IMG/VR virus record: IMGVR_UViG_3300037067_014938 | Span: 17,435-81,434 of that record | Reading direction: 5' to 3' (one strand) | DNA: 64,000 nt | Source of the DNA: a virus | Lineage: Duplodnaviria > Heunggongvirae > Uroviricota > Caudoviricetes | Part shown: one piece after another, positions 27,747 to 62,269 of the stretch | Layout of the letters: the number at the start of each line of letters is the position of its first letter | How positions within the stretch are numbered: the stretch's first letter is position 1 | The notes under the pieces: model-generated | Databases searched by the model: none | What the model was told of the DNA's origin: nothing | Seen by the model: the letters and a program-made list of their open reading frames with translations, nothing else | Position numbers and translations under genes: made by a program

Positions 27747-27937
27747 TGCGAAAGATTTCGAAAAAGAGTAATTAAAAAACTACTTCAACTTTATGAAAAT
27801 GATTTCTGAAAATGGTCTAAGAATTTTGCGAGGAAAACGTAGGTATAGCTGTACCATTTGGATGCCTCAAGGTGTTTCTGAAATGCAAACAGATTGCATT
27901 GCACCAGTTGTAGATAAAGATGGATTTCCACATCAAT

Positions 27938-28011
27938 GCCCCCGTAGCTCAATTGGATAGAGCAGATGCCTTCTAAGCAAAAGGTAGCAAGTTCGAATCT
28001 TGCCGGGGGTA
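27938..28011 (+). tRNA. tRNA-Arg (anticodon UCU); weak anticodon stem
   Basis: Acceptor GCCCCCG/CGGGGGT, D-arm GCTC-AATTGGATA-GAGC, loop CTTCTAA, T-arm GCAAG-TTCGAAT-CTTGC. The anticodon stem has only 3 clean pairs. Confidence 0.55.
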
Positions 28012-28015
28012 TTTT

Positions 28016-28076
28016 GAATATAGCATAATTGGTAATGCAGCAGTCTGTAGAAAGGTTCGAGTCCTTCCTCAACCAT
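28016..28076 (+). pseudogene. tRNA-like fragment (D-arm GCAT-AATTGGTA-ATGC plus T-loop GGTTCGAGTCC) without an acceptor stem
   Basis: No complementary 5'/3' acceptor strands and no anticodon arm could be formed by hand. Confidence 0.3.
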
Positions 28077-28991
28077 TTAAACTATGAATAAATATTTAAC
28101 TTTATTACTTCTTTACTATGCTTGTTGGCCAGAAGGTGAAATCCCTCCTTATTATATAAGGGATAATTTACTTGTATATGTTGCACAATATACAAAAACA
28201 GCAATTTATTATCAAGATCAATTGTTTAATTGCAAAGAAAATAGGCTGTTTTGTAGGTTGTTGAATAAAAAAGATTAAAATGTGTATATTTCATAAATGG
28301 TGCAATCTCATAAGATTTGGTTTATACCGGCCGAATTCCCTGGAAAACACGGCCCGTTATAAAGTATGCAACAAGTGTTATAAATTAAAATGGAAAAGAA
28401 GAAAATATTATCCTAAGGAAATGCTATGATTAGAGGGTTTGCGGCATCACGAGAAGTTGTAATAAATGGTATTAGACTATCTCCTAAAAAGAGTTAAGAT
28501 ATTATTAATCATTCTCCCGATGGTTTTAATTGGGGTTATCACGGTTTCGGCCTGCCCAGTTAGCCCTTGCATTATTATTGGAATTTCGCGATGAAGCATT
28601 TGCCAGAAAATATTATATGAGAATAAATAATATTAATATAATTTACAATTATGCAGGTTATAAATTAGATATATTTGCACGTCATGCTGATCTTCCTTAT
28701 TTACCTTTAAAAATAGCTATAAGTAAGAAATCTTCTATTATTACTACATATGAAGATATAGTTTTTTCAAATTGAATTGGATATAATCAAATTACTTCTT
28801 TTAATGTTAGCATCATATGAATAACTTATTACTCTTATACTTTTTTGGAGATGCTACGGGTCTTTTAGACACAATAAAATTTAATCAATTCAAAAAAGAA
28901 AGATGGAAAGATATGCTTTTTGAACATATGGGACATCCAGTATACTGGAAAGAAGTAAAAAATTGGGTTTATATATTTAACAAATTGACAA

Positions 28992-29870
28992 ATGAACAGT
29001 TATCCTAAAGTATATGCTCTTGGGCATAGAGCAGTAACTGGCTTAAATGGTTCTCAAGTTATAATTGAAGAAAAGGTAGACGGAAGTCAATTCTCTTTTG
29101 GTCGTTATAATAATACTTTACGTGTAAAGTCTCATAATAAAGAAATGGTTCCTGATGCTCCAGAAAAAATGTTTAAAAAAGCCGTTGATTTTGTAGCAAC
29201 GCTGGATTTAATGAATGGTTGGACATATCGGGGGGAAGTTTTAGATAAACCTAAACACCATCTCTTAACTTACAGCCGAGTTCCAAATGGCAATGTAATT
29301 TTATTTGATATAAATGTTGCACCAGAAAATTATTTATCGTATAATGACAAAGATATAGAAGCAATACGACTTGGTTTAGAAATTGTGCCTCGATTATATG
29401 AGGGAATTTTTGCTTTTGATATTCCTTCTTTAATGGCTTTTCTTGAGAGAGAATCTATATTAGGTGGGACGAAAATTGAAGGAATTGTAATTAAAAATTA
29501 TAATTTATTTGGTCCGGATGGAAAACCCTTGATGGGAAAATTTGTATCTGAGAAATTCAAAGAAGATGCAAAAAAACAGTGGAAAAATAATAATCCAGGG
29601 GGGAAAGACGTAATTGATAATTTAATTCAGGTATTTAAAACCGAAATAAGATGGGAAAAAGCTATACTTCATCTTCGCGAAGAGGGTAAAGTAACTGACG
29701 ATCCGAAAGATATTGGTCTAATTATAAAAACAGTCATGCAAGATATTAAAGACGAATGTCGGGATGATATTGAGGGGATGTTATATTCTTGGGCGATAGA
29801 TAAAGTTCTTCGCGGATGTATAAGAGGGTTGCCTGAATGGTACAAGAAGAAATTGATAGAAAAACAATAA
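28992..29870 (+). CDS. ATP-dependent RNA ligase, Rnl2-like nucleotidyltransferase
   Basis: Motif I EEKVDGSQFSFG (KxDG), followed by RGEVL, ILFDI, EGIVIK and GKFVSEKFK, in the order of RNA/DNA ligase motifs I-V. Confidence 0.6.
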   Translation: MNSYPKVYALGHRAVTGLNGSQVIIEEKVDGSQFSFGRYNNTLRVKSHNKEMVPDAPEKMFKKAVDFVATLDLMNGWTYRGEVLDKPKHHLLTYSRVPNGNVILFDINVAPENYLSYNDKDIEAIRLGLEIVPRLYEGIFAFDIPSLMAFLERESILGGTKIEGIVIKNYNLFGPDGKPLMGKFVSEKFKEDAKKQWKNNNPGGKDVIDNLIQVFKTEIRWEKAILHLREEGKVTDDPKDIGLIIKTVMQDIKDECRDDIEGMLYSWAIDKVLRGCIRGLPEWYKKKLIEKQ

Positions 29871-30018
29871 TAATTTTATTTTTATTTCAAATAGCTAAAT
29901 ATTTACGGTCGGGAAAACATATGGTAGGAATAATGAATGACAGAGGTATAGAAAATTGTTTTTCTAATTGTCGTGAAAATGCAACGCTGAATAATTTTAC
30001 GGATAACAGAATAAAAAG

Positions 30019-30306
30019 ATGTATTCAACAATTGTTGAAATAAATGATTTGTTACTTATATATTTACTTATGGGGTACTTTAGGTGGTATAATGAAGAAA
30101 AAAGTTTTAATATAGATATAGATTATCTTAAAGCATTTCATGGAGCAACGCCTCCCAAAGCTATAGAAGAAATTTTTGAAGCTTTTGATTGGCTTTTAAA
30201 GGCTGTAAAAATATATCCGTGGCATGAATTCTCAATGGCGGGTCGTGTAGTATTAAAACTTGCCGGAGTGGTGGAATTGGTAGACACCAGGGACTTAGTA
30301 CAATGA
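30019..30306 (+). CDS. Hypothetical protein; shares an exact 42-bp segment with ORF 40154..40618
   Basis: IDIDYLKAFHGATP is encoded by identical DNA at 30112..30153 and 40346..40387. The 3' end overlaps the tRNA-Leu 5' exon. Confidence 0.35.
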   Translation: MYSTIVEINDLLLIYLLMGYFRWYNEEKSFNIDIDYLKAFHGATPPKAIEEIFEAFDWLLKAVKIYPWHEFSMAGRVVLKLAGVVELVDTRDLVQ

Positions 30307-30566
30307 GCACTTAGATTGGAAACTTCTAAGTGAATAGGGCCTAATTCGGTGAATCCTGTAAAGTGGTAACGCCGAGCTAAATTTCAAGTAAATAATTTTA
30401 CTTGAATAAATGTGTAGAGACTATACAGCCCTTACCTAAACCAAAAGGCATGGTAAAGACATAGTCCAGACCACAAACTTGTTTGCTATCAAGGTGATGA
30501 AAATCATAGTGGTAAGAAAATCCCTTGCCTAAATTAGGCGTGCCGGTTCAAGTCCGGCCTCCGGCA
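30262..30566 (+). tRNA. tRNA-Leu (anticodon UAA), type II, interrupted by a group I intron in the anticodon loop
   Basis: Exon 1 (30262..30296): GCCGGAG-TG-GTG-GAATTGGTAGA-CAC-C-AGGGA-CTT. Exon 2 (30517..30566): AAAA-TCCCT-TGCCTAAATTAGGCG-T-GCCGG-TTCAAGT-CCGGC-CTCCGGC-A. The spliced tRNA is 85 nt and resembles bacterial tRNA-Leu. Confidence 0.75.
30297..30516 (+). ncRNA. Group I intron (IC3-like, 220 nt) inserted between U34 and A35 of tRNA-Leu(UAA)
   Basis: Starts after exon U and ends with omega G (GGTAAG|AAAA). Core segments AACGCCGAGC and GTGTAGAGACTATACAGCCCTTACCTAAACCAAAAGGCATGG match the P7/P3/P8 core of Azoarcus/Anabaena tRNA introns. No internal ORF. Confidence 0.7.
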
Positions 30567-30960
30567 TTAAAATTCTGGTGGAGAGATAAATGTGGATGAT
30601 GCTACATACTCGTGATAGTACTTATTTATTTACTGCAACAATTACGGATAAAGAGTATATACTAAATATGCGTAGATATTGGCACCCCAAAGCTATACTT
30701 ATTTTGGTGGATAAATGACTATAATTGATATAGATCGTCGTATGATAAGAGTATATGTTGAAGGTAAAACTTTAACATATTCTATAATGTACCATCCAGA
30801 TGCTAATCAATTTTCTTTTTACCCTGGTGCTACTCCACAAGAGTTTTTTAGAATATGTAGAAATGCAAGTGATGTATTCCATATATTTGGTGTTCAGTTA
30901 ATCGTTGCTTTACTATTAAGTATATATGCAAATTATTAGGGTGTTTGATAAGGAGGAAAA

Positions 30961-31170
30961 ATGAAAAGGGAAGAATTGAAAGCTGGAGAAATTTATCAAG
31001 TAAATCAAGAAGGACATAAACTTCATGGTAAACCCGTGATTGCTTCTTGTTATTCCGTGTGGCTCGACAATCCCAATGATACGTTAGTCATGTGCCACGA
31101 AATTGACAAAAATGGGTTCTTTGATAGGGAACCAGTGAATATAAACAATTTAGTAAGAGTAGGAGTCTAA
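30961..31170 (+). CDS. Hypothetical protein
   Basis: RBS AAGGAGG upstream. Confidence 0.4.
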   Translation: MKREELKAGEIYQVNQEGHKLHGKPVIASCYSVWLDNPNDTLVMCHEIDKNGFFDREPVNINNLVRVGV

Positions 31171-31171
31171 G

Positions 31172-31612
31172 ATGAAAATCGAGTATTTTCGTCACGATGA
31201 TAACAACAATATCCTGGCTACGATGGTTATTGTTGAAGAAGGTCCAGATAAGGGAAAATATGGACTTTGTTTTACAAAACCAAGAGAAAATGGTGATAAA
31301 AAGATGGGCAGAGAAACTGCTAAAGAGAGATTAATTTCTGCCCCTGGAAATATTTTATCAGGTACACAACTTGGTAAATTATTATATAAAATGTTGGTTA
31401 AGCAAAAAGAAATTTTTCTACCCTTAGCTGAATACACTGGTGGTAACTTTTTTGTTACCGTTAAAGAAGTTAAAGGGATTATCTTCAATCATTCACGAAA
31501 ATCCGTTGATTTGGTTTCCAATGGAGATAATGGTGAGGAAATTAGAAGTTGGATTGGAACAGTTTTATCTATGAGCGTATTAGATTTCAAGGTCGGAATT
31601 AAACAATATTAA
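31172..31612 (+). CDS. Hypothetical protein
   Basis: 146-aa ORF. Confidence 0.4.
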   Translation: MKIEYFRHDDNNNILATMVIVEEGPDKGKYGLCFTKPRENGDKKMGRETAKERLISAPGNILSGTQLGKLLYKMLVKQKEIFLPLAEYTGGNFFVTVKEVKGIIFNHSRKSVDLVSNGDNGEEIRSWIGTVLSMSVLDFKVGIKQY

Positions 31613-31622
31613 GGAGGAACAA

Positions 31623-32420
31623 GTGAAGAGAATTTTGATTTCGTTTGTGGCCATTTTTTCATTCGTAATGGCCGGGTGCGGAACCCAAATTGACTCTGGT
31701 TACAAAGGAGTCAAATATTACAAATTTGGAGATGGCACCCAAATGGGAAAAGTTTACAATGAAGGGTTTCAATGGCATCTACCTTGGAACAGTTTTTATA
31801 CGTACAAAGTCCAAGTGAACGAAGCCAAAGAAAAACTTCATATTCTGGCTGTAAATGGAGTCTCTTTGGATATTGATATGGGGGTTTGGTTTTATCCCGA
31901 TGTTAGCAAATTAGACTCCTTACAAATTACGGTCGGCCCGGATTATGCCAATTCGGTTGTTCTTCCAGCTTTGCGAGAAGAATCCCGCAAAAAGGTAGGA
32001 AAATACACACCGGAAGATACATATTCCGCCAAACGAGATTTAATTGGTGAAGAAATTTTGGCCGGGATGCGGGAACTTTGTGGAAAAAAGTTTATTATTG
32101 TTGACAAAATTCTCATCCGGGACGTAAATCTTCCCGAAAAAATCAAAGCGGCTATTGATGCCAAAATCACCGCCGATCAAGAGCAGCAACAAATGGAGTT
32201 TACACTGTTGAAAGAAGCGAAGGAAGCCGAACGTAAACGAATCGAAGCCGGTGGTATTGCTGATTTTCAGCGAATCGTTTCGCAAGGAATTACGCCGTCG
32301 TTGCTCGAATGGAAGGGGATTGAAGCTACGGAAAAGTTAGTTGCTTCGCCAAACGCCAAGATTATTGTAATTGGCAACGGCAAAGACAATCTCCCGGTGC
32401 TTTTGAACGGTGGCAATTAG
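31623..32420 (+). CDS. SPFH/Band-7 (prohibitin/HflC-like) lipoprotein in GC-rich moron
   Basis: Lipobox FVMAGCG. C-terminal region EAKEAERKRIEAGGIADFQRIVSQGI...AKIIVIGNG is typical of the SPFH domain. Local GC about 45%. Confidence 0.55.
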   Translation: MKRILISFVAIFSFVMAGCGTQIDSGYKGVKYYKFGDGTQMGKVYNEGFQWHLPWNSFYTYKVQVNEAKEKLHILAVNGVSLDIDMGVWFYPDVSKLDSLQITVGPDYANSVVLPALREESRKKVGKYTPEDTYSAKRDLIGEEILAGMRELCGKKFIIVDKILIRDVNLPEKIKAAIDAKITADQEQQQMEFTLLKEAKEAERKRIEAGGIADFQRIVSQGITPSLLEWKGIEATEKLVASPNAKIIVIGNGKDNLPVLLNGGN

Positions 32421-32435
32421 GGCCATTTTGGGATT

Positions 32436-32915
32436 TTGGAGGATAGGATAATGCACTATTTACTGATAGTATTTACCAACAAGCCGACGGATTTGAATAT
32501 CACGAACATCATGGAACCATTCTGCGAACATGATGGGGATAATCCCGACGGAAAATGGGACTTCTGGCAAATCGGTGGACGTTGGACGGGCCTGTTTGAT
32601 GGATACGAACCGGATAAAGACCCCGACAATTCCGAACCATGTTGGCTTTGTGGTGCGACTGGAAAGCGTACCGACATGGAAGTTGTAAACGGGTGCAACA
32701 GATGTAACGGAACCGGGACGGCAATCAAATGGCCGACGAAATGGAAACGGCACGACGGCGACATTATGAAGGCCAGTACGGTTAAGACGTGGCCGGAATA
32801 CATCGGTGAAACACCATATATTGACGGCCAGGGTGGATGGCACGATAATGGCGTGGTCGAATATGCCAAGGCCAATCCTAATCTTTTTGCCGTCGTCGTG
32901 GATTTTCATACATGA
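32436..32915 (+). CDS. Hypothetical Cys-rich protein in GC-rich moron
   Basis: GC about 50%. Contains CWLCGATGKR...CNRCNGTG. The overlapping antisense ORFs are judged spurious. Confidence 0.4.
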   Translation: MEDRIMHYLLIVFTNKPTDLNITNIMEPFCEHDGDNPDGKWDFWQIGGRWTGLFDGYEPDKDPDNSEPCWLCGATGKRTDMEVVNGCNRCNGTGTAIKWPTKWKRHDGDIMKASTVKTWPEYIGETPYIDGQGGWHDNGVVEYAKANPNLFAVVVDFHT

Positions 32916-33005
32916 AAAATTAAAGGGGAAAATGATATGTAGAACATCCGGTGATGGTTATCTATTTTAACCCCCGACCGACCCGTGACTTTCCCCTATA
33001 AAAAT

Positions 33006-33078
33006 GGGACTGTAGCTCAATTGGTAGAGCAATTGCCCTTTAAGCAATAGGTCGATGGTTCGACTCCATCCAGTATAC
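33006..33078 (+). tRNA. tRNA-Lys (anticodon UUU), loop CCTTTAA with C33; acceptor stem has mismatches
   Basis: D-arm GCTC-AATTGGTA-GAGC, anticodon stem ATTGC/GCAAT, T-arm GATGG-TTCGACT-CCATC. Acceptor GGGACTG/CAGTATA has 5 of 7 pairs. Confidence 0.5.
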
Positions 33079-33602
33079 ACGCAACCTATCCTCTTGTGAC
33101 TTAAAATTATTTATTATAACAGCACGAGAAGCTGCTCTTTTTTATAGATTCCCTGGTATAACAATTGGAAAACTATTACTCCTGATTTTGGCAGAAAAAT
33201 GAACGAAATTGGTCTGATATTTATAATCCTTTTTTTGATTACTTTGTATGTTAACTCCTTATATTTCGCGAGAAAAATAATACTGTGAAAAAGATTCAAA
33301 GAGAGAATGTAACAATTTACTGACTTACTCAAAGACGGCAAGTAGGTGTCAATGTGGTCGCCCTAATGTGGCTTACAATCAAAAATGCTTCTCATGTGGA
33401 AAAATTAATAATAATAGTTATATTGTGGGAAAAAGATGAACATGGATTTTATAGACTTTATTAGATTTACAGCTTGGGTATATGCCATACTGATACCACT
33501 ATGGGCTATAGCTGGATGTGCGGTCCAACATTTTGACGAACAAAGAGAACTTGCAACTGAACAAATAAAGAATCTGTGAGAAAGAAAACGCCGAAGAATT
33601 AA

Positions 33603-33675
33603 AAGGGCCATAGCTCAATCGGCAGAGCATCTTCCTTACACGGAGACGGTTAGTGGTTCAAATCCACTTGGCCCT
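33603..33675 (+). tRNA. tRNA-Val (anticodon UAC)
   Basis: Acceptor AGGGCCA/TGGCCCT, D-arm GCTC-AATCGGCA-GAGC, anticodon stem TCTTC/GGAGA with loop CTTACAC, T-arm AGTGG-TTCAAAT-CCACT. Confidence 0.65.
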
Positions 33676-34097
33676 ATTACATTTCTTTTATTTCTGCTTG
33701 CTGTTGCATTTACTCTTGGTATGTGGGTGATAATACTCTTCCTTCCCATTGATAAAATACCCATACCTATAAACGCATATACAAAAATTGGGATATTCTG
33801 TATATTTATGTTTACAATAATTGGAATAGATGTCTCACTTTTTAGAATCACGAGAATGAACTTTAATGAAAGATGAATTAATTTTTATACTTATTACTTA
33901 TTGTATTCATATAAAATATGGTTTCACAACTAATATACATTATCATATAAAATGGTTACCCACTCATATTGAGGCATGTGATTTGTATGACTCATATATT
34001 TATAATACTCGTGCATTCCACAAAGAATTGTATAAGTTTAAAATGAAGCTATTGAGGAATGTTAGTTGATTTGCATGCAATCGGCTAATCAAAAAAT

Positions 34098-34171
34098 GGC
34101 CTCGTAACTCAGTTGGTTAGAGTACATGCCTTATAAGCATGAAGTCGTTGGTTCAAGTCCAACCGGGGCTA
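34098..34171 (+). tRNA. tRNA-Ile (anticodon UAU)
   Basis: Acceptor GGCCTCG/CGGGGCT, D-arm ACTC-AGTTGGTTA-GAGT, anticodon stem CATGC/GCATG with loop CTTATAA, T-arm GTTGG-TTCAAGT-CCAAC. Confidence 0.6.
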
Positions 34172-34175
34172 TTTT

Positions 34176-34436
34176 ATGATATATATTAGAATAGCACATA
34201 AAGCAGTTGATATTAGTGAAAATAAAGATTTTTGTGTTGATCTATATTGTCAAGATGATACAAAAACGTTATACGACATTGGTACAAAAGGTAGAATTAG
34301 TTGTGATATACCTCGTGTTATAAAATATGGCAATGAATTATTAGCTTCAAGAAAAACATTCTTTAATGAATTTCCAACTTTATATAGTGTTAAATTATTA
34401 CTTTTAATACTGGCAGAATTTCCTCTTATTCAATAA
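34176..34436 (+). CDS. Small paralog-family protein (C-terminus VKLLLLILAEFPLIQ)
   Basis: N-terminus MIYIRIA and the C-terminal LLxILAE motif. Confidence 0.45.
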   Translation: MIYIRIAHKAVDISENKDFCVDLYCQDDTKTLYDIGTKGRISCDIPRVIKYGNELLASRKTFFNEFPTLYSVKLLLLILAEFPLIQ

Positions 34437-34833
34437 TCGGAGCTTCAAATGAGAATGTTCTTATTACGATACTTTGATAATTTTATGCCTTGGGTAACTG
34501 CTGGAATATTCATAAATTATGGAAATGCTTTATGGAATAATTTTTCTTATTCTTTATTAGCCATTTGGTTTATTGCAATCGGAAGTGGATTACTTGGTTT
34601 TAGTCTAGCTATTATATTAATTTCAAATGATTTAAAGCTTGTTTACTTCATTTATAAAAAACAAAAAAAGTTACAAAAATGAAAATTCAAATCATTTTTA
34701 ATAATATAAGAATAACTGGAAACGAAGGGCCGGGTTGGGTAGAACTCCCTGGAAATATTGCTTTTGGCACATCTCTTAGTCAATATATAGAATATTTGAT
34801 GAGTTCACATCAGGAGGAAATTTTGCCTGCACA

Positions 34834-36153
34834 ATGTATAAAAGTTCTTTTATGGATATTAGGAGAAAAATAATGCCACATGTTTTATATAAGAATAATC
34901 CAACTGCCTATAGAAAAAGCAACCAAGTGTTCATTAATAAAGTACCTATTGCCTATATTTGGGCAGATTTTAACACCCTCGAACAATCGGCAAAGAATCA
35001 AATTTATGAAATGATAAAGCATCCCAGACTTTGGCCTCATTTAGCCATAATGCCTGATGTCCATGCGGGAATAGGTGCTACAATTGGTTCTGTAATTCCC
35101 TTACGTAATGCAATTATTCCATCTGCCGTTGGAACTGACATTGGTTGTGGAGTAATGGCTCTTAAAACAAATCTTACGGTAAACGAAGTAACTCCTAAAT
35201 TTAAAGAAATTCATATGGGGATTAAGAGAAGTATTCCGCTTGGATTTAATGATCGAAATATGAATCCAAGAAATCAAAAATTAATGAAAGAATTAGTTCC
35301 AGATGTTTTACACGCTCAGATTTTTGATTACGAGCAAAATAAGGAACTTTGGAATAGCCATAAGGGAATCGCTCCGCAAATGGGAACATTAGGTAGTGGA
35401 AATCATTTTATAGAGTTGTGCAAAGATAAAGATAATGTGGTATGGGCTGTTGTTCATTCCGGTTCTAGAAATATTGGTTATAAGATTGCAGAAAGATATA
35501 CTAAATTAGCAAAAGAAGAAGGTCATTCTTTTGGTGATTTGTCATATTTTGATGCTGACTCGGAAAGAGGCGAAGAATATTTAAAGCATATGCGATTTGC
35601 GGTGGATTTTGCTTATTATAATAGAAAATTTATGATTCATGAAATAACTTTAATGTTTAAGTCCTTATTTCCAAATCTCATAGGTCAGATAGAATTAAAT
35701 ATTCCGCATAATTTTGTAGCAGAAGAGTTTCATTATGGAGAATGGCTTTGGATTCATAGAAAAGGTGCTGTAAAAGTGCCTAATCTTTTAGTTCCACATT
35801 GGTTTACGAGAGGAATTATCCCAGGGTCAATGGGTTCTTCAACTTATATTGTAGAGGGTAGAGGAAATGAAGAGTCCTTTAATTCTTGCTCTCATGGTGC
35901 TGGTAGAGTTATGTCTCGTTCTATGGCCAAAGGGAAAGTCAATAGGAAAACAGGGGAGCAAAAAACCGAAGGTGTATTAAAACTGGAAGATTTTAAAGCA
36001 AAAATGGCAGGAATTTATTCTGAGGATATTGATTCGCAACATATAGATGAATCTCCAGATGCGTATAAGGATATAGATAAGGTAATGGAAAATCAGAAAG
36101 AATTAGTCGTAATTCTGGAAAAATTAGAACCTATATTTAATATTAAGGGATGA
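34834..36153 (+). CDS. rtcB: RtcB-family 3'-phosphate RNA ligase
   Basis: DIGCGVMA, GSGNHFIEL, HSGSRNIG, PHNFV and SCSHGAGR motifs in RtcB order. 439 aa. Confidence 0.8.
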   Translation: MYKSSFMDIRRKIMPHVLYKNNPTAYRKSNQVFINKVPIAYIWADFNTLEQSAKNQIYEMIKHPRLWPHLAIMPDVHAGIGATIGSVIPLRNAIIPSAVGTDIGCGVMALKTNLTVNEVTPKFKEIHMGIKRSIPLGFNDRNMNPRNQKLMKELVPDVLHAQIFDYEQNKELWNSHKGIAPQMGTLGSGNHFIELCKDKDNVVWAVVHSGSRNIGYKIAERYTKLAKEEGHSFGDLSYFDADSERGEEYLKHMRFAVDFAYYNRKFMIHEITLMFKSLFPNLIGQIELNIPHNFVAEEFHYGEWLWIHRKGAVKVPNLLVPHWFTRGIIPGSMGSSTYIVEGRGNEESFNSCSHGAGRVMSRSMAKGKVNRKTGEQKTEGVLKLEDFKAKMAGIYSEDIDSQHIDESPDAYKDIDKVMENQKELVVILEKLEPIFNIKG

Positions 36154-39653: not shown

Positions 39654-39935
39654 ATGGTACTTTCATTTGAGGAAAAGATGTTAGTAGTATATCATGAAGT
39701 ACCAGGATGTTTTACCGTAGATGACCGGTTAGTTTTTGATACTAATATAGGTAATAGGTGTGACCATAAAATACCTCTGGGTAAAATGCTTTCTCCAATA
39801 GAATATCTTCACAAGTTTAAGACAAGTTACCCAAGAGATTTTATATGTGTAAAAGCAATACTTTTATTTATTTTATATAATCGGCGTGTAGCTCAGTTGG
39901 TTCAGAGCACTCGGCCTGGGACCGAGAGGTCGTAA
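39654..39935 (+). CDS. Small paralog-family protein (C-terminus AILLFILYNRR); runs into tRNA-Pro
   Basis: C-terminal motif is immediately followed by the tRNA-Pro 5' end. The ORF tail past the motif is probably not real coding. Confidence 0.4.
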   Translation: MVLSFEEKMLVVYHEVPGCFTVDDRLVFDTNIGNRCDHKIPLGKMLSPIEYLHKFKTSYPRDFICVKAILLFILYNRRVAQLVQSTRPGTERS

Positions 39936-39957: not shown

Positions 39958-40176
39958 ATGAGAATAACAATTTATACACGTTTATTAGAAATAAATTTAG
40001 ATGGTCAACTTGTATTTTATATTCCAACTGGAAATGGAACAGAATTAAATGATAGTTGTAATCCAATAAATTTTCTTAGGGCATCTTCTGAATGTTCAGG
40101 AGAGCACATTTCAAGAGCAATTGTAGCATTCTTATTGTTTCTTTTAGCAGAGGATGATTATGTTGGGAAAAAATAA
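39958..40176 (+). CDS. Small paralog-family protein (C-terminus AIVAFLLFLLAEDDYVGKK)
   Basis: N-terminus MRITIY and the C-terminal motif. Confidence 0.45.
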   Translation: MRITIYTRLLEINLDGQLVFYIPTGNGTELNDSCNPINFLRASSECSGEHISRAIVAFLLFLLAEDDYVGKK

Positions 40177-40618
40177 TAAAATGAGTTTGCAAGAAATTTT
40201 AGCAAAGGCTAAGGAATTTAATCCTCTTTGTGAATTTGACACTTCATATTATATCTTATTATATCTAATATTAAGGAAGATGGATTGTTCAGTAAAAGAT
40301 GCCATACATCTTACATTGGGAGAGGCTCGAAGATCAGAAACACCAATAGATATAGATTATCTTAAAGCATTTCATGGAGCAACGCCTATTTTTATAAAAG
40401 AATCTATGGAAGCAGGTATAACTTTCATAAGTTCTTGTCCTTTACCCGATCCCAAAGCTATAGAAAATTTAATTAAAAAGTATGGAAAACCTAAAAGTGC
40501 CATATTGAATTTAGTATGGCTTGAAGTAGGTTTGAATCTATCACATAATGGTAGAATTGATCCACAAAAAGAATATATTAAATTAATGTCAACTATAATC
40601 AAGAAATCCGGAGGTTAA
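40154..40618 (+). CDS. Hypothetical protein sharing the exact 42-bp IDIDYLKAFHGATP segment with 30019..30306
   Basis: Identical DNA at 40346..40387. Confidence 0.4.
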   Translation: MIMLGKNNKMSLQEILAKAKEFNPLCEFDTSYYILLYLILRKMDCSVKDAIHLTLGEARRSETPIDIDYLKAFHGATPIFIKESMEAGITFISSCPLPDPKAIENLIKKYGKPKSAILNLVWLEVGLNLSHNGRIDPQKEYIKLMSTIIKKSGG

Positions 40619-62142: not shown

Positions 62143-62159
62143 ACAGGATCTCCATAAAA

Positions 62160-62269
62160 TGGAGGTGGGTGGATTTGAACCACCGTGTGAGTAAAACTGC
62201 ATTGAAAATGATCTTCCCGATGGGAAGCATATCAATGCCATGATCTACTCGTCAATGCCTGTCACCCCC
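62160..62269 (-). ncRNA. tRNA-like element (110 nt) with tRNA-Ala-type acceptor GGGGGTG/CACCTCC and T-arm GGTGG-TTCAAAT-CCACC but non-canonical body; 5' end resembles a tmRNA tRNA-like domain
   Basis: The 5' sequence GGGGGTGACAGGCATTGACGAG is like tmRNA GGGGCUGAUUCUGGAUUCGACGGG. No D or anticodon arm could be folded by hand. The element overlaps the def stop. Confidence 0.35.

Follow-up and report, generated by a model that had tools for sequence, protein, structure and literature searches.

A split tRNA-Leu(UAA) gene

The stretch of DNA analysed here, referred to as the window, comprises 64,000 nt of IMG/VR record IMGVR_UViG_3300037067_014938 (positions 17,435-81,434; Caudoviricetes). On its + strand, at 30262-30566, lies an 85-nt type II tRNA-Leu(UAA) gene that is split in its anticodon loop by a 220-nt insert, and it is this insert, which we read as a group I intron without an open reading frame (ORF), that forms the subject of our study. 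The parts of the gene are listed below, with paired regions of the intron numbered P1-P9.

30262-30296, + strand: 5' exon, 35 nt, GCCGGAGTGGTGGAATTGGTAGACACCAGGGACTT, ending in ...GACTT; carries the 5' strand of the acceptor stem, the D arm, and C32, U33 and U34
30289-30293, + strand: 5' strand of the anticodon stem, within the 5' exon
30294-30296, + strand: exon bases CUU, the exon share of P1
30297-30516, + strand: intron, 220 nt, IC3-like, without an ORF, AGTACAATGAG...GTGGTAAG, between U34 and A35
30517-30566, + strand: 3' exon, 50 nt, AAAATCCCTTGCC...CTCCGGCA (the whole half reads AAAATCCCTTGCCTAAATTAGGCGTGCCGGTTCAAGTCCGGCCTCCGGCA); carries A35, A36, A37 and A38, the long variable arm, the T arm, the 3' strand of the acceptor stem and the discriminator A
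30521-30525, + strand: 3' strand of the anticodon stem, within the 3' exon

Joined together, the two halves form a cloverleaf that ARAGORN calls as tRNA-Leu(taa), with a long variable arm, A73 and an intact anticodon stem; CCA is not encoded at the 3' end. When introns are allowed, the program also calls the unspliced gene, placing a 220-nt intron between gactt and aaaat and differing from our delineation only trivially, by one added terminal pair (87 nt as against 85). An earlier note, made from the sequence alone, had described tRNA-Leu halves of 35 and 50 nt separated by 220 nt, with the insert starting after U34 and ending in a G before AAAA-TCCCT. These coordinates and lengths are exact, the boundaries drawn by intron-mode ARAGORN, a check which that note had proposed, are the same, and the final intron base is G30516, directly 5' of AAAATCCCT. 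The predicted spliced junction is GACUU/AAAAUC, or GGGACUU/AAAAUCCC in its longer form.

Standard annotation overlooks this gene. Default ARAGORN called nothing at the tRNA-Leu locus, either in the window or in 30200-30620, and an Rfam scan of the whole window at the gathering threshold with fast filters missed the intron; both misses are artefacts of filtering and of the intron mode rather than evidence of absence. Nor is the intron an assembly artefact, because the same 305-nt pre-tRNA recurs without a single difference in a second, independent ENA assembly of this phage, which over 6.7 kb is 99.97% identical. In that assembly a 95-aa ORF at 30019-30306 (+) is called as a gene. It covers the entire 5' exon, its TGA stop codon (30304-30306) falls within the internal guide sequence of the intron, and a PHROG search with it returned no match.

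Fold and covariation of the intron

With permissive filters, the Rfam family Intron_gpI (RF00028) matches 30287-30487 at 62.7 bits, above its gathering threshold of 50, with an E-value of 1e-15 on the region and 1.6e-13 on the whole window. The minimum free energy structure of the intron alone has a z-score of -4.6 and recovers P2, P3, P4, P5, P6 and P9b. Together, the E-values and the z-score place the match far beyond chance. R1, our own covariance model of the P3-P8 core, finds exactly one match in the window, namely the intron, at 110.4 bits. Every helix expected of a group I intron, including P1 and P7, can be formed, and with them the P4-P6 and P3-P7-P8 stacks of the conserved core, as set out here.

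30294-30297 with 30304-30307, + strand: P1, exon C-U-U plus intron A paired with the guide U-G-A-G; 6-nt loop GUACAA
30308-30332, + strand: P2 hairpin, 8 bp, CACUUAGA/UCUAAGUG, with a small internal loop and a G-C closing pair
30319-30322, + strand: GAAA tetraloop of P2, conserved in the alignment
30336-30340 with 30428-30432, + strand: P3, AGGGC with GCCCU
30346-30351 with 30370-30375, + strand: P4, UCGGUG with CGCCGA
30355-30356 with 30365-30366, + strand: P5, short, enclosed by P4
30376-30377 with 30412-30413, + strand: base of P6, G.U and C-G, both invariant (21/21 each)
30383-30392 with 30397-30406, + strand: P6 extension, 10 bp, UUCAAGUAAA/UUUACUUGAA, longer than in relatives
30417-30423 with 30462-30467, + strand: P7, G-(A bulge)-GACUA with UAGUCC, forming a pseudoknot with P3
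30434-30454, + strand: P8, CCUAAA...CAUGG, a variant of the 11-nt tetraloop receptor
30470-30474 with 30509-30513, + strand: P9, ACCAC with GUGGU; its three-way junction spans 30470-30513
30478-30481 with 30490-30493, + strand: P9a, CUUG with CAAG, 8-nt loop, read from the sequence only
30494-30507, + strand: P9b, GUGAU with AUCAU, GAAA loop
30516, + strand: terminal guanosine (omega-G) at the 3' splice site, invariant in 21 homologues

Covariation was assessed in a structure-blind MAFFT alignment of the window and 20 viral pre-tRNAs (21 sequences), in which 51 pairs were counted over P1-P9, with P7 as a pseudoknot, and the anticodon stem. Within this viral set 97.4% of cells are paired, compared with 30-37% when the partners are slid, and 25 pairs have changed on both sides; shuffles reached the observed values in 0/500 cases on four of five measures and in 1/500 on the fifth. 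The anticodon stem is 100% paired and has three covarying pairs. P1 retains C-G, U-A and U.G in all 21 homologues, the last being the U30296.G30305 wobble at the 5' splice site, and a fourth pair, A-U or G-U, in 18. The three outer pairs of P2 covary, and P3 exhibits compensatory changes in all 6 columns, being paired in 98% of the viral and 96% of the bacterial set. The AA of J4/5 and the loop bases of P5 are conserved. The six pairs of P7, inferred to be the guanosine-binding helix with G30419-C30466 next to the bulged A as the putative binding pair, are 100% paired, the innermost switching between A-U (12 sequences) and U-A (9). P8 has an invariant ACC/GGU and covarying inner pairs, P9 switches from C-G to U-A in 6/21, and P9b displays compensatory changes in 5/5 pairs. 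An R1 alignment of 99 bacterial homologues with the window, which leans towards structure as it was fitted to the model, has 92% of cells paired and compensatory changes in 19 of 27 pairs.

The earlier note had recognised the insert as a group I intron from two segments, and both the identity and the segments hold. They are present as AACGCCGAGC at 30368-30377 and GTGTAGAGACT...GGCATGG at 30412-30453. In the fold they cover the 3' strand of P4 and the beginning of P6, as well as J6/7-P7-P3'-P8; no other blocks of the family are as strongly conserved. All of the approximately 50 invariant core positions of the family are intact in the window intron. Its length of 220 nt, as opposed to about 200 nt, is due to the unusually long P6 extension. 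As the note had also stated, there is no homing endonuclease ORF: a search within the intron found no ORF above 30 aa, the longest one inside is 23 aa, and a 30-aa ORF on the minus strand (30295-30387) reaches 2 nt into the 5' exon.

For subgroup IC3 we looked for the presence of P2, the lack of P2.1 and P5abc, the P9 junction, and paired tetraloop/receptor contacts. The helices read from the sequence fit, and the core motif is common to bacterial tRNA introns; we use the term IC3-like. The receptor-like motif of P8 may be the docking site for the GAAA loop of P2 (L2), and such tetraloop and 11-nt-receptor style contacts of Azoarcus-type introns presumably have their match here. The small IC3 introns of Azoarcus tRNA-Ile and alphaproteobacterial tRNA-Arg(CCU) possess the same type of architecture, and the core blocks AACGCCGAGC and GUGUAGAGACU...ACCUAA are common to the window intron and bacterial IC3 tRNA introns, the likeness to Azoarcus being a lead; they differ from the window intron in the tRNA interrupted and in the position within the anticodon loop. 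The closest parallel by features, rather than by alignment with the intron of PCC 7120, is the cyanobacterial tRNA-Leu(UAA) intron, which occupies the same host gene and the same 34/35 site, lacks an ORF, measures 200-280 nt, forms its P1 from the same CUU of the anticodon loop, again with a splice-site U.G, shares the core helices, and likewise has its exons held by the anticodon stem. In contrast, the window intron is phage-borne, has a longer P6 and a non-GNRA L9a, and finds its nearest retrieved neighbours among viral introns.

Several points weigh against a working intron. P1 has only 4 bp and we found no convincing P10; a short P1 and the lack of P10 are usual for tRNA introns, whose exons are aligned by the anticodon stem (Zaug et al. 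1993, as cited in PMC3984707). The sixth position of P3 is a C.A mismatch, the P8 receptor has A.C where relatives mostly have A-U, and P9a is without the GNRA loop present in most relatives. The window intron is at most about 70-73% identical to any retrieved homologue and is the most divergent of the Leu set, which may have brought some loss of activity. A further point is the apparent overlap of the 95-aa ORF with the 5' exon; splicing and catalytic activity are deduced from the intactness of the catalytic features. Divergence to about 70% identity, the short P1, the C.A of P3, the A.C of the receptor and the non-GNRA L9a are what a dead relic might exhibit, that is, an intron which has ceased to splice and has thereby turned the tRNA-Leu gene into a pseudogene. 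We consider this improbable. The invariant core positions are intact and all helices can form, the exons yield a perfect cloverleaf with A73, and the canonical receptor motif has at the position in question a G.U, with which A.C is isosteric. Furthermore, UUA is the commonest Leu codon of this phage: TTA accounts for 49% and TTG for 19% of the Leu codons in 21 long ORFs (68% together), and ARAGORN calls no other tRNA-Leu in the 64-kb window, which is part of a larger genome. Thus, the phage has an obvious use for tRNA-Leu(UAA), and hence for splicing.

Taken together, these features lead us to conclude with high confidence that 30262-30566 represents a functional phage tRNA-Leu(UAA) gene interrupted at U34/A35 by a 220-nt, ORF-less, IC3-like group I intron, which is real and probably self-splicing. 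The gene would be transcribed together with the surrounding + strand genes, and folding of the tRNA body, including the anticodon stem, would hold the two exons together. As the intron folds into P1-P9, the guide UGAG would pair with exon CUU and the first intron base, setting U.G at the 5' splice site, and GAAA loops would make tertiary contacts from L2 to the P8 receptor and from L9b to P5. Splicing would begin with an attack on the 5' splice site by an exogenous guanosine bound at P7; U34, with its 3'-OH thus released, would then attack after the terminal G30516 and so join the exons. End processing and CCA addition would complete an 85-nt tRNA capable of reading UUA and UUG.

An intron family in viral and bacterial tRNA genes

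A scan of IMG/VR for the core motif GTGTAGAGACT-N8-16-ACCTAA gave at least 120 matches, and among those listed at least 40 contigs carry a tRNA-Leu(UAA) with an insert of 196-297 nt at the same site. ARAGORN called 30 of these 40 as Leu and miscalled the other 10 as 'Tyr(ata)' through a boundary shift of 2 nt. Genes for rIIA, a baseplate hub and a tail protein lie near such tRNAs, which can belong to arrays of up to 22 tRNA genes. Two 735-kb records of uncultured phages, LR756501 and LR756503, also yielded a split tRNA-Leu(UAA) homologue by blastn (RF00028, 56.6 bits), and a third deposited huge-phage record, LR756511, likewise has an intron-bearing tRNA-Leu(UAA) that is unannotated, as it is in the other two. 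The earlier note had held that a self-splicing intron at this position in a phage stands out. As the arrangement recurs in no fewer than 40 contigs of IMG/VR and in three huge-phage records already deposited, this was an overstatement; the find is under-described rather than singular, and its commonness in sequence data makes it of more general relevance.

Two viral contigs, L260 and L266, have a tRNA gene without an intron, whose sequence is the same as that predicted for the spliced tRNA from genes of the type found in contig L013. L266 is syntenic with L013 on both sides, the sole gap being 197 nt exactly at the predicted junction, so that within this family the splice sites are confirmed by nature. 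The exact 25-nt exon junction of the window itself occurs uninterrupted in 13 other viral contigs, and for one exon type more than 120 intron-less counterparts were found, meaning that the intron is clearly dispensable. At the other extreme, the 595-kb phage LR756511 (about 409.2-409.9 kb; L253 595-1381) carries a tRNA-Leu(UAA) with a 700-nt intron, in which lies a 189-aa ORF with an HNH domain (PF01844, 26.3 bits against a cut-off of 21.4), in a record without annotation; the encoded endonuclease presumably cuts intron-less alleles. Intron-minus alleles and this HNH-bearing relative show that the family follows the usual life cycle of homing introns, of which the window intron is the ORF-less stage.

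The same scan of GTDB (one genome per species) produced at least 120 matches. Among those listed are at least 41 bacterial tRNA-Leu(UAA) introns from Alpha- and Gammaproteobacteria, Acidobacteriota, Bacteroidota and metagenome-assembled genomes (MAGs) of Firmicutes, together with introns in Arg(CCU), Thr(UGU), Met(CAU) and Asn tRNAs. At least 14 bacterial tRNA-Arg(CCU) genes were retrieved, from Rhizobiales, Bartonella, Acetobacteraceae/Rhodospirillales and one Nostoc genome; no cyanobacterial tRNA-Leu intron is among the bacterial comparison loci. These finds agree with a 2026 survey that counted 333 group I introns in bacterial tRNAs, spread over 18 phyla, with the 34/35 site in tRNA-Leu and 81% classed as IC (PMC13011429). 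Across 194 conserved columns, viral Leu introns have a mean identity of 76% to each other and 68% to bacterial Leu introns, and for 28 of 32 the nearest neighbour is another viral Leu intron. The nearest neighbours of the window intron among the retrieved introns are viral Leu introns as well, at 68-70%. A neighbour-joining tree of 138 introns did not place the window intron reliably, on account of its long branch, and we have used identities instead.

Could the intron be kept because it benefits the phage? It might confer immunity to homing endonucleases of co-infecting phages that target tRNA genes, or delay the supply of tRNA-Leu(UAA) until late infection. Its recurrence in very different phages (rIIA-encoding T4-like contigs, tailed phages with baseplate genes, and phages of 600-735 kb), the greater closeness of viral Leu introns to each other than to bacterial ones, a relative with an HNH endonuclease that presumably cuts intron-less alleles, and the abundance of intron-minus alleles as targets are all consistent with such a role. 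However, the same pattern is equally expected of a selfish element that spreads by homing and then undergoes loss of the endonuclease and of the intron, and the many intron-less counterparts of one exon type argue for dispensability. We find a benefit doubtful and favour reading the intron as a passenger, selfish or neutral and streamlined in form, that belongs to a phage-borne lineage among whose relatives HNH homing endonucleases can occur.

One speculation, which we put forward only tentatively, is that a widespread lineage of tRNA-Leu(UAA) group I introns belonging to phages, with and without endonuclease and with kin in other phage tRNAs, serves as the vehicle by which the ORF-less intron, itself immobile otherwise, passes between bacterial phyla. 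If true, this would explain the patchy distribution of the ORF-less intron in cyanobacteria and elsewhere; in a variant of the proposal, the intron would be kept since the phage tRNA gene becomes immune to the tRNA-gene-targeting endonucleases of competitors. Phage-borne alleles with and without the intron, along with the HNH-bearing relative, make the horizontal spread of the ORF-less tRNA-Leu(UAA) intron testable.

What appears to be new is the host context: a known intron type, present in phage tRNA genes, that is apparently undescribed in print and demonstrably common in sequence data. The classical phage introns, in T4 td, nrdB and nrdD, the SPO1 DNA polymerase gene, Twort and cyanophage psbA, are also self-splicing group I introns, residing in virulent phages, and are polymorphic for presence among relatives; unlike the window intron, they interrupt protein-coding genes and often carry homing endonuclease genes. 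According to a 2014 review (PMC3984707), every phage group I intron then known was located in a protein gene, even though phages have many tRNA genes; that generalisation would now be corrected. In the literature searched, which took in few subscription journals, we came across no phage tRNA gene reported to contain a group I intron. Introns in phage tRNAs, called previously unreported, were described in Lak megaphages as 'enigmatic' and left unclassified (Devoto et al., PMC6784885), a 2026 survey of jumbo phages noted tRNA 'intronic sequences' without classifying them (PMC13037316), and introns go unmentioned in the huge-phage paper from which the LR7565xx records stem. The Lak and jumbo-phage introns are likewise missed by standard bacterial tRNA finders and occur as alleles with and without intron; they reside in Phe, Gly, Thr and Tyr tRNAs and have been given no intron class, whereas the window intron is unambiguously group I. 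The window intron offers a concrete class for at least some of the 'enigmatic' introns (PMC6784885), and if the tentative proposal of a phage lineage is true, these would be at least partly of the same class.

The consequences for annotation are practical. Phage tRNA repertoires, and arguments from codon usage that build on them, are undercounted because default ARAGORN and filtered Rfam miss the gene, and LR756501, LR756503, LR756511 and the Gordonia phage Daredevil all carry such genes unannotated. The 196-220-nt ribozymes furthermore constitute small, natural and sequence-diverse IC3-like cores that are of use for engineering ribozymes and for work on circular RNA.

Daredevil (NC_048021, about 41.8-42.1 kb, reverse strand; L252 1339-1650) has a tRNA-Lys(UUU) with a 238-nt IC3-like intron, located between the integrase gene and gp53. 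It is a cultured actinophage and as such tractable for splicing tests. Its membership rests on R1 (81.2 bits) and on an ARAGORN call with introns allowed (option -i), as RF00028 gives only 15.4 bits.

Outside tRNA genes, the same IC3-like core is present in podovirus capsid genes, namely those of Pelagibacter phage HTVC120P and of the uncultured phage KT997847 (R1, 112.8 and 103.4 bits, respectively). These introns lie between two annotated 'capsid protein' coding-sequence fragments, at L251 1493-1612 in HTVC120P and L387 1193-1308 in KT997847, so that the major capsid gene is interrupted by introns that are unannotated. A second R1 match in KT997847 (L387 1903-2017) follows closely on the second capsid fragment and precedes the gene for tail tubular protein A.

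Among the viral loci are also intron-bearing tRNAs with a UAA anticodon whose exons total 73-78 nt (L017, L019/L032/L095, L027, L044, L058 and L080), giving a short variable arm and a type I architecture, unlike bacterial tRNA-Leu; two of them, L019 and L044, adjoin rIIA genes. In L024, L051, L046 and others, ARAGORN -i places introns of about 190-200 nt, with tentative boundaries, in tRNAs with anticodons tca or cta, which may be suppressor tRNAs. Such calls, again with tentative boundaries, extend to viral Arg(tct/cct), Phe, Pro, Met, Thr, Ser and Glu tRNAs. ARAGORN 'introns' of 400-600 nt, mostly without an ORF and at odd anticodon positions, were not counted. In blastn the window intron matched best to L188 (73% over 175 nt), a 3.3-kb contig in an Anaeroplasmatales MAG bin. 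It has a clear tRNA-Leu 3' exon and coding-like sequence in place of the 5' exon; one possibility is that a piece of phage DNA was binned as bacterial, another that the intron has acquired an insertion near P1.

The phage genome around the gene

The window is the replication and nucleotide-metabolism module of a large phage. Its replication genes encode a family A DNA polymerase (PolA), a primase, a DnaB-like helicase, a UvsX-like recombinase and a clamp loader; to these are added a fused SbcD-SbcC, a class II ribonucleotide reductase, a thymidylate synthase, a sigma factor, a ClpP/head-maturation-protease-like protein, an RNA ligase, RtcB and many small ORFs. It is AT-rich, with a G+C content of 30-37%. 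Eleven other tRNA genes are dispersed among the small ORFs. The earlier note had spoken of an apparent phage tRNA island: the phage origin stands, and a tight island does not, as the tRNAs are scattered over 64 kb.

Introns in tRNA-Leu(UAA) are classical in cyanobacteria and plastids, and at least 41 bacterial genomes of several phyla contain them, which raises the question of whether the window could itself be a bacterial or plastid segment, where such an intron would be routine. We regard this as scarcely credible, the least probable of the explanations considered. No rRNA, ribosomal-protein or photosynthesis genes were seen, the small ORFs are dense, and the replication genes are of phage type, with PHROG matches for the primase, the clamp loader, the UvsX-like recombinase, the SbcCD fusion and the head-maturation-protease-like protein. 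Every relative of the RNA ligase (38-51% amino acid identity) comes from an IMG/VR viral contig, at a distance too great for synteny; among them, L244 has an intron-less tRNA-Leu(UAA) near its ligase gene. Exact protein look-up found the phage itself in three metagenome assemblies only, megablast of 28000-36000 gave no match in 50,697 deposited phage records, and an exact 23-nt piece of the intron core was not found in IMG/VR.

Two genes for RNA-joining enzymes flank the tRNA-Leu gene.

28992-29870: RNA ligase (PF09414), 0.4 kb upstream of the tRNA-Leu gene
34834-36153: RtcB (PF01139, 1e-97), 4.3 kb downstream of the tRNA-Leu gene

Their proximity invites the alternative that the insert is removed by proteins, an endonuclease cutting it out and RtcB or the RNA ligase sealing the exons, as in archaeal and eukaryal tRNA splicing. 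We judge this very improbable. The insert lies at 34/35 and not at the canonical 37/38, its fold is that of a complete group I intron and is backed by covariation, it has a U.G at the 5' site and ends in G, and no splicing endonuclease was identified among the ORFs scanned; a bulge-helix-bulge was not formally searched for. Phage RtcB and RNA ligase are usually tRNA-repair enzymes that counter host anticodon nucleases, and the insertion site and the full group I fold render repair the more plausible role here.

The two genes bracket a run of six + strand tRNAs (Arg at 27937, Leu, Lys, Val, Ile(UAU), and Pro at 39881). The cluster of RNA ligase, RtcB and tRNAs looks like a module for tRNA supply and repair against host anticodon nucleases. 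A promoter and terminator scan of 29600-31000 revealed no enrichment, and PHROG searches of the small flanking ORFs returned nothing.

Elsewhere in the window, a tmRNA-like element (after transfer-messenger RNA) of 113 nt lies at 62157-62269 on the minus strand. It scored 35.6 bits against the Rfam tmRNA family in the whole-window scan (gathering threshold 47) and gave no match when scanned alone; ARAGORN found nothing there in its bacterial tRNA and tmRNA modes, and a call in mitochondrial mode on the opposite strand was taken as spurious. No pseudoknots and no clear tag ORF were found in it. Its acceptor stem is GGGGGUG/CACCUCC with a G3.U70 pair and an A discriminator, its T arm reads GGUGG-UUCAAAU-CCACC, and its middle is a single long hairpin.

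Finally, an exact 42-nt direct repeat, at 30112-30153 and 40346-40387 and encoding IDIDYLKAFHGATP, sits in two otherwise unrelated ORFs, the one at 30019-30306 that overlaps the 5' exon and another at 40154-40618. Both ORFs adjoin tRNA genes, Leu and Pro, respectively.

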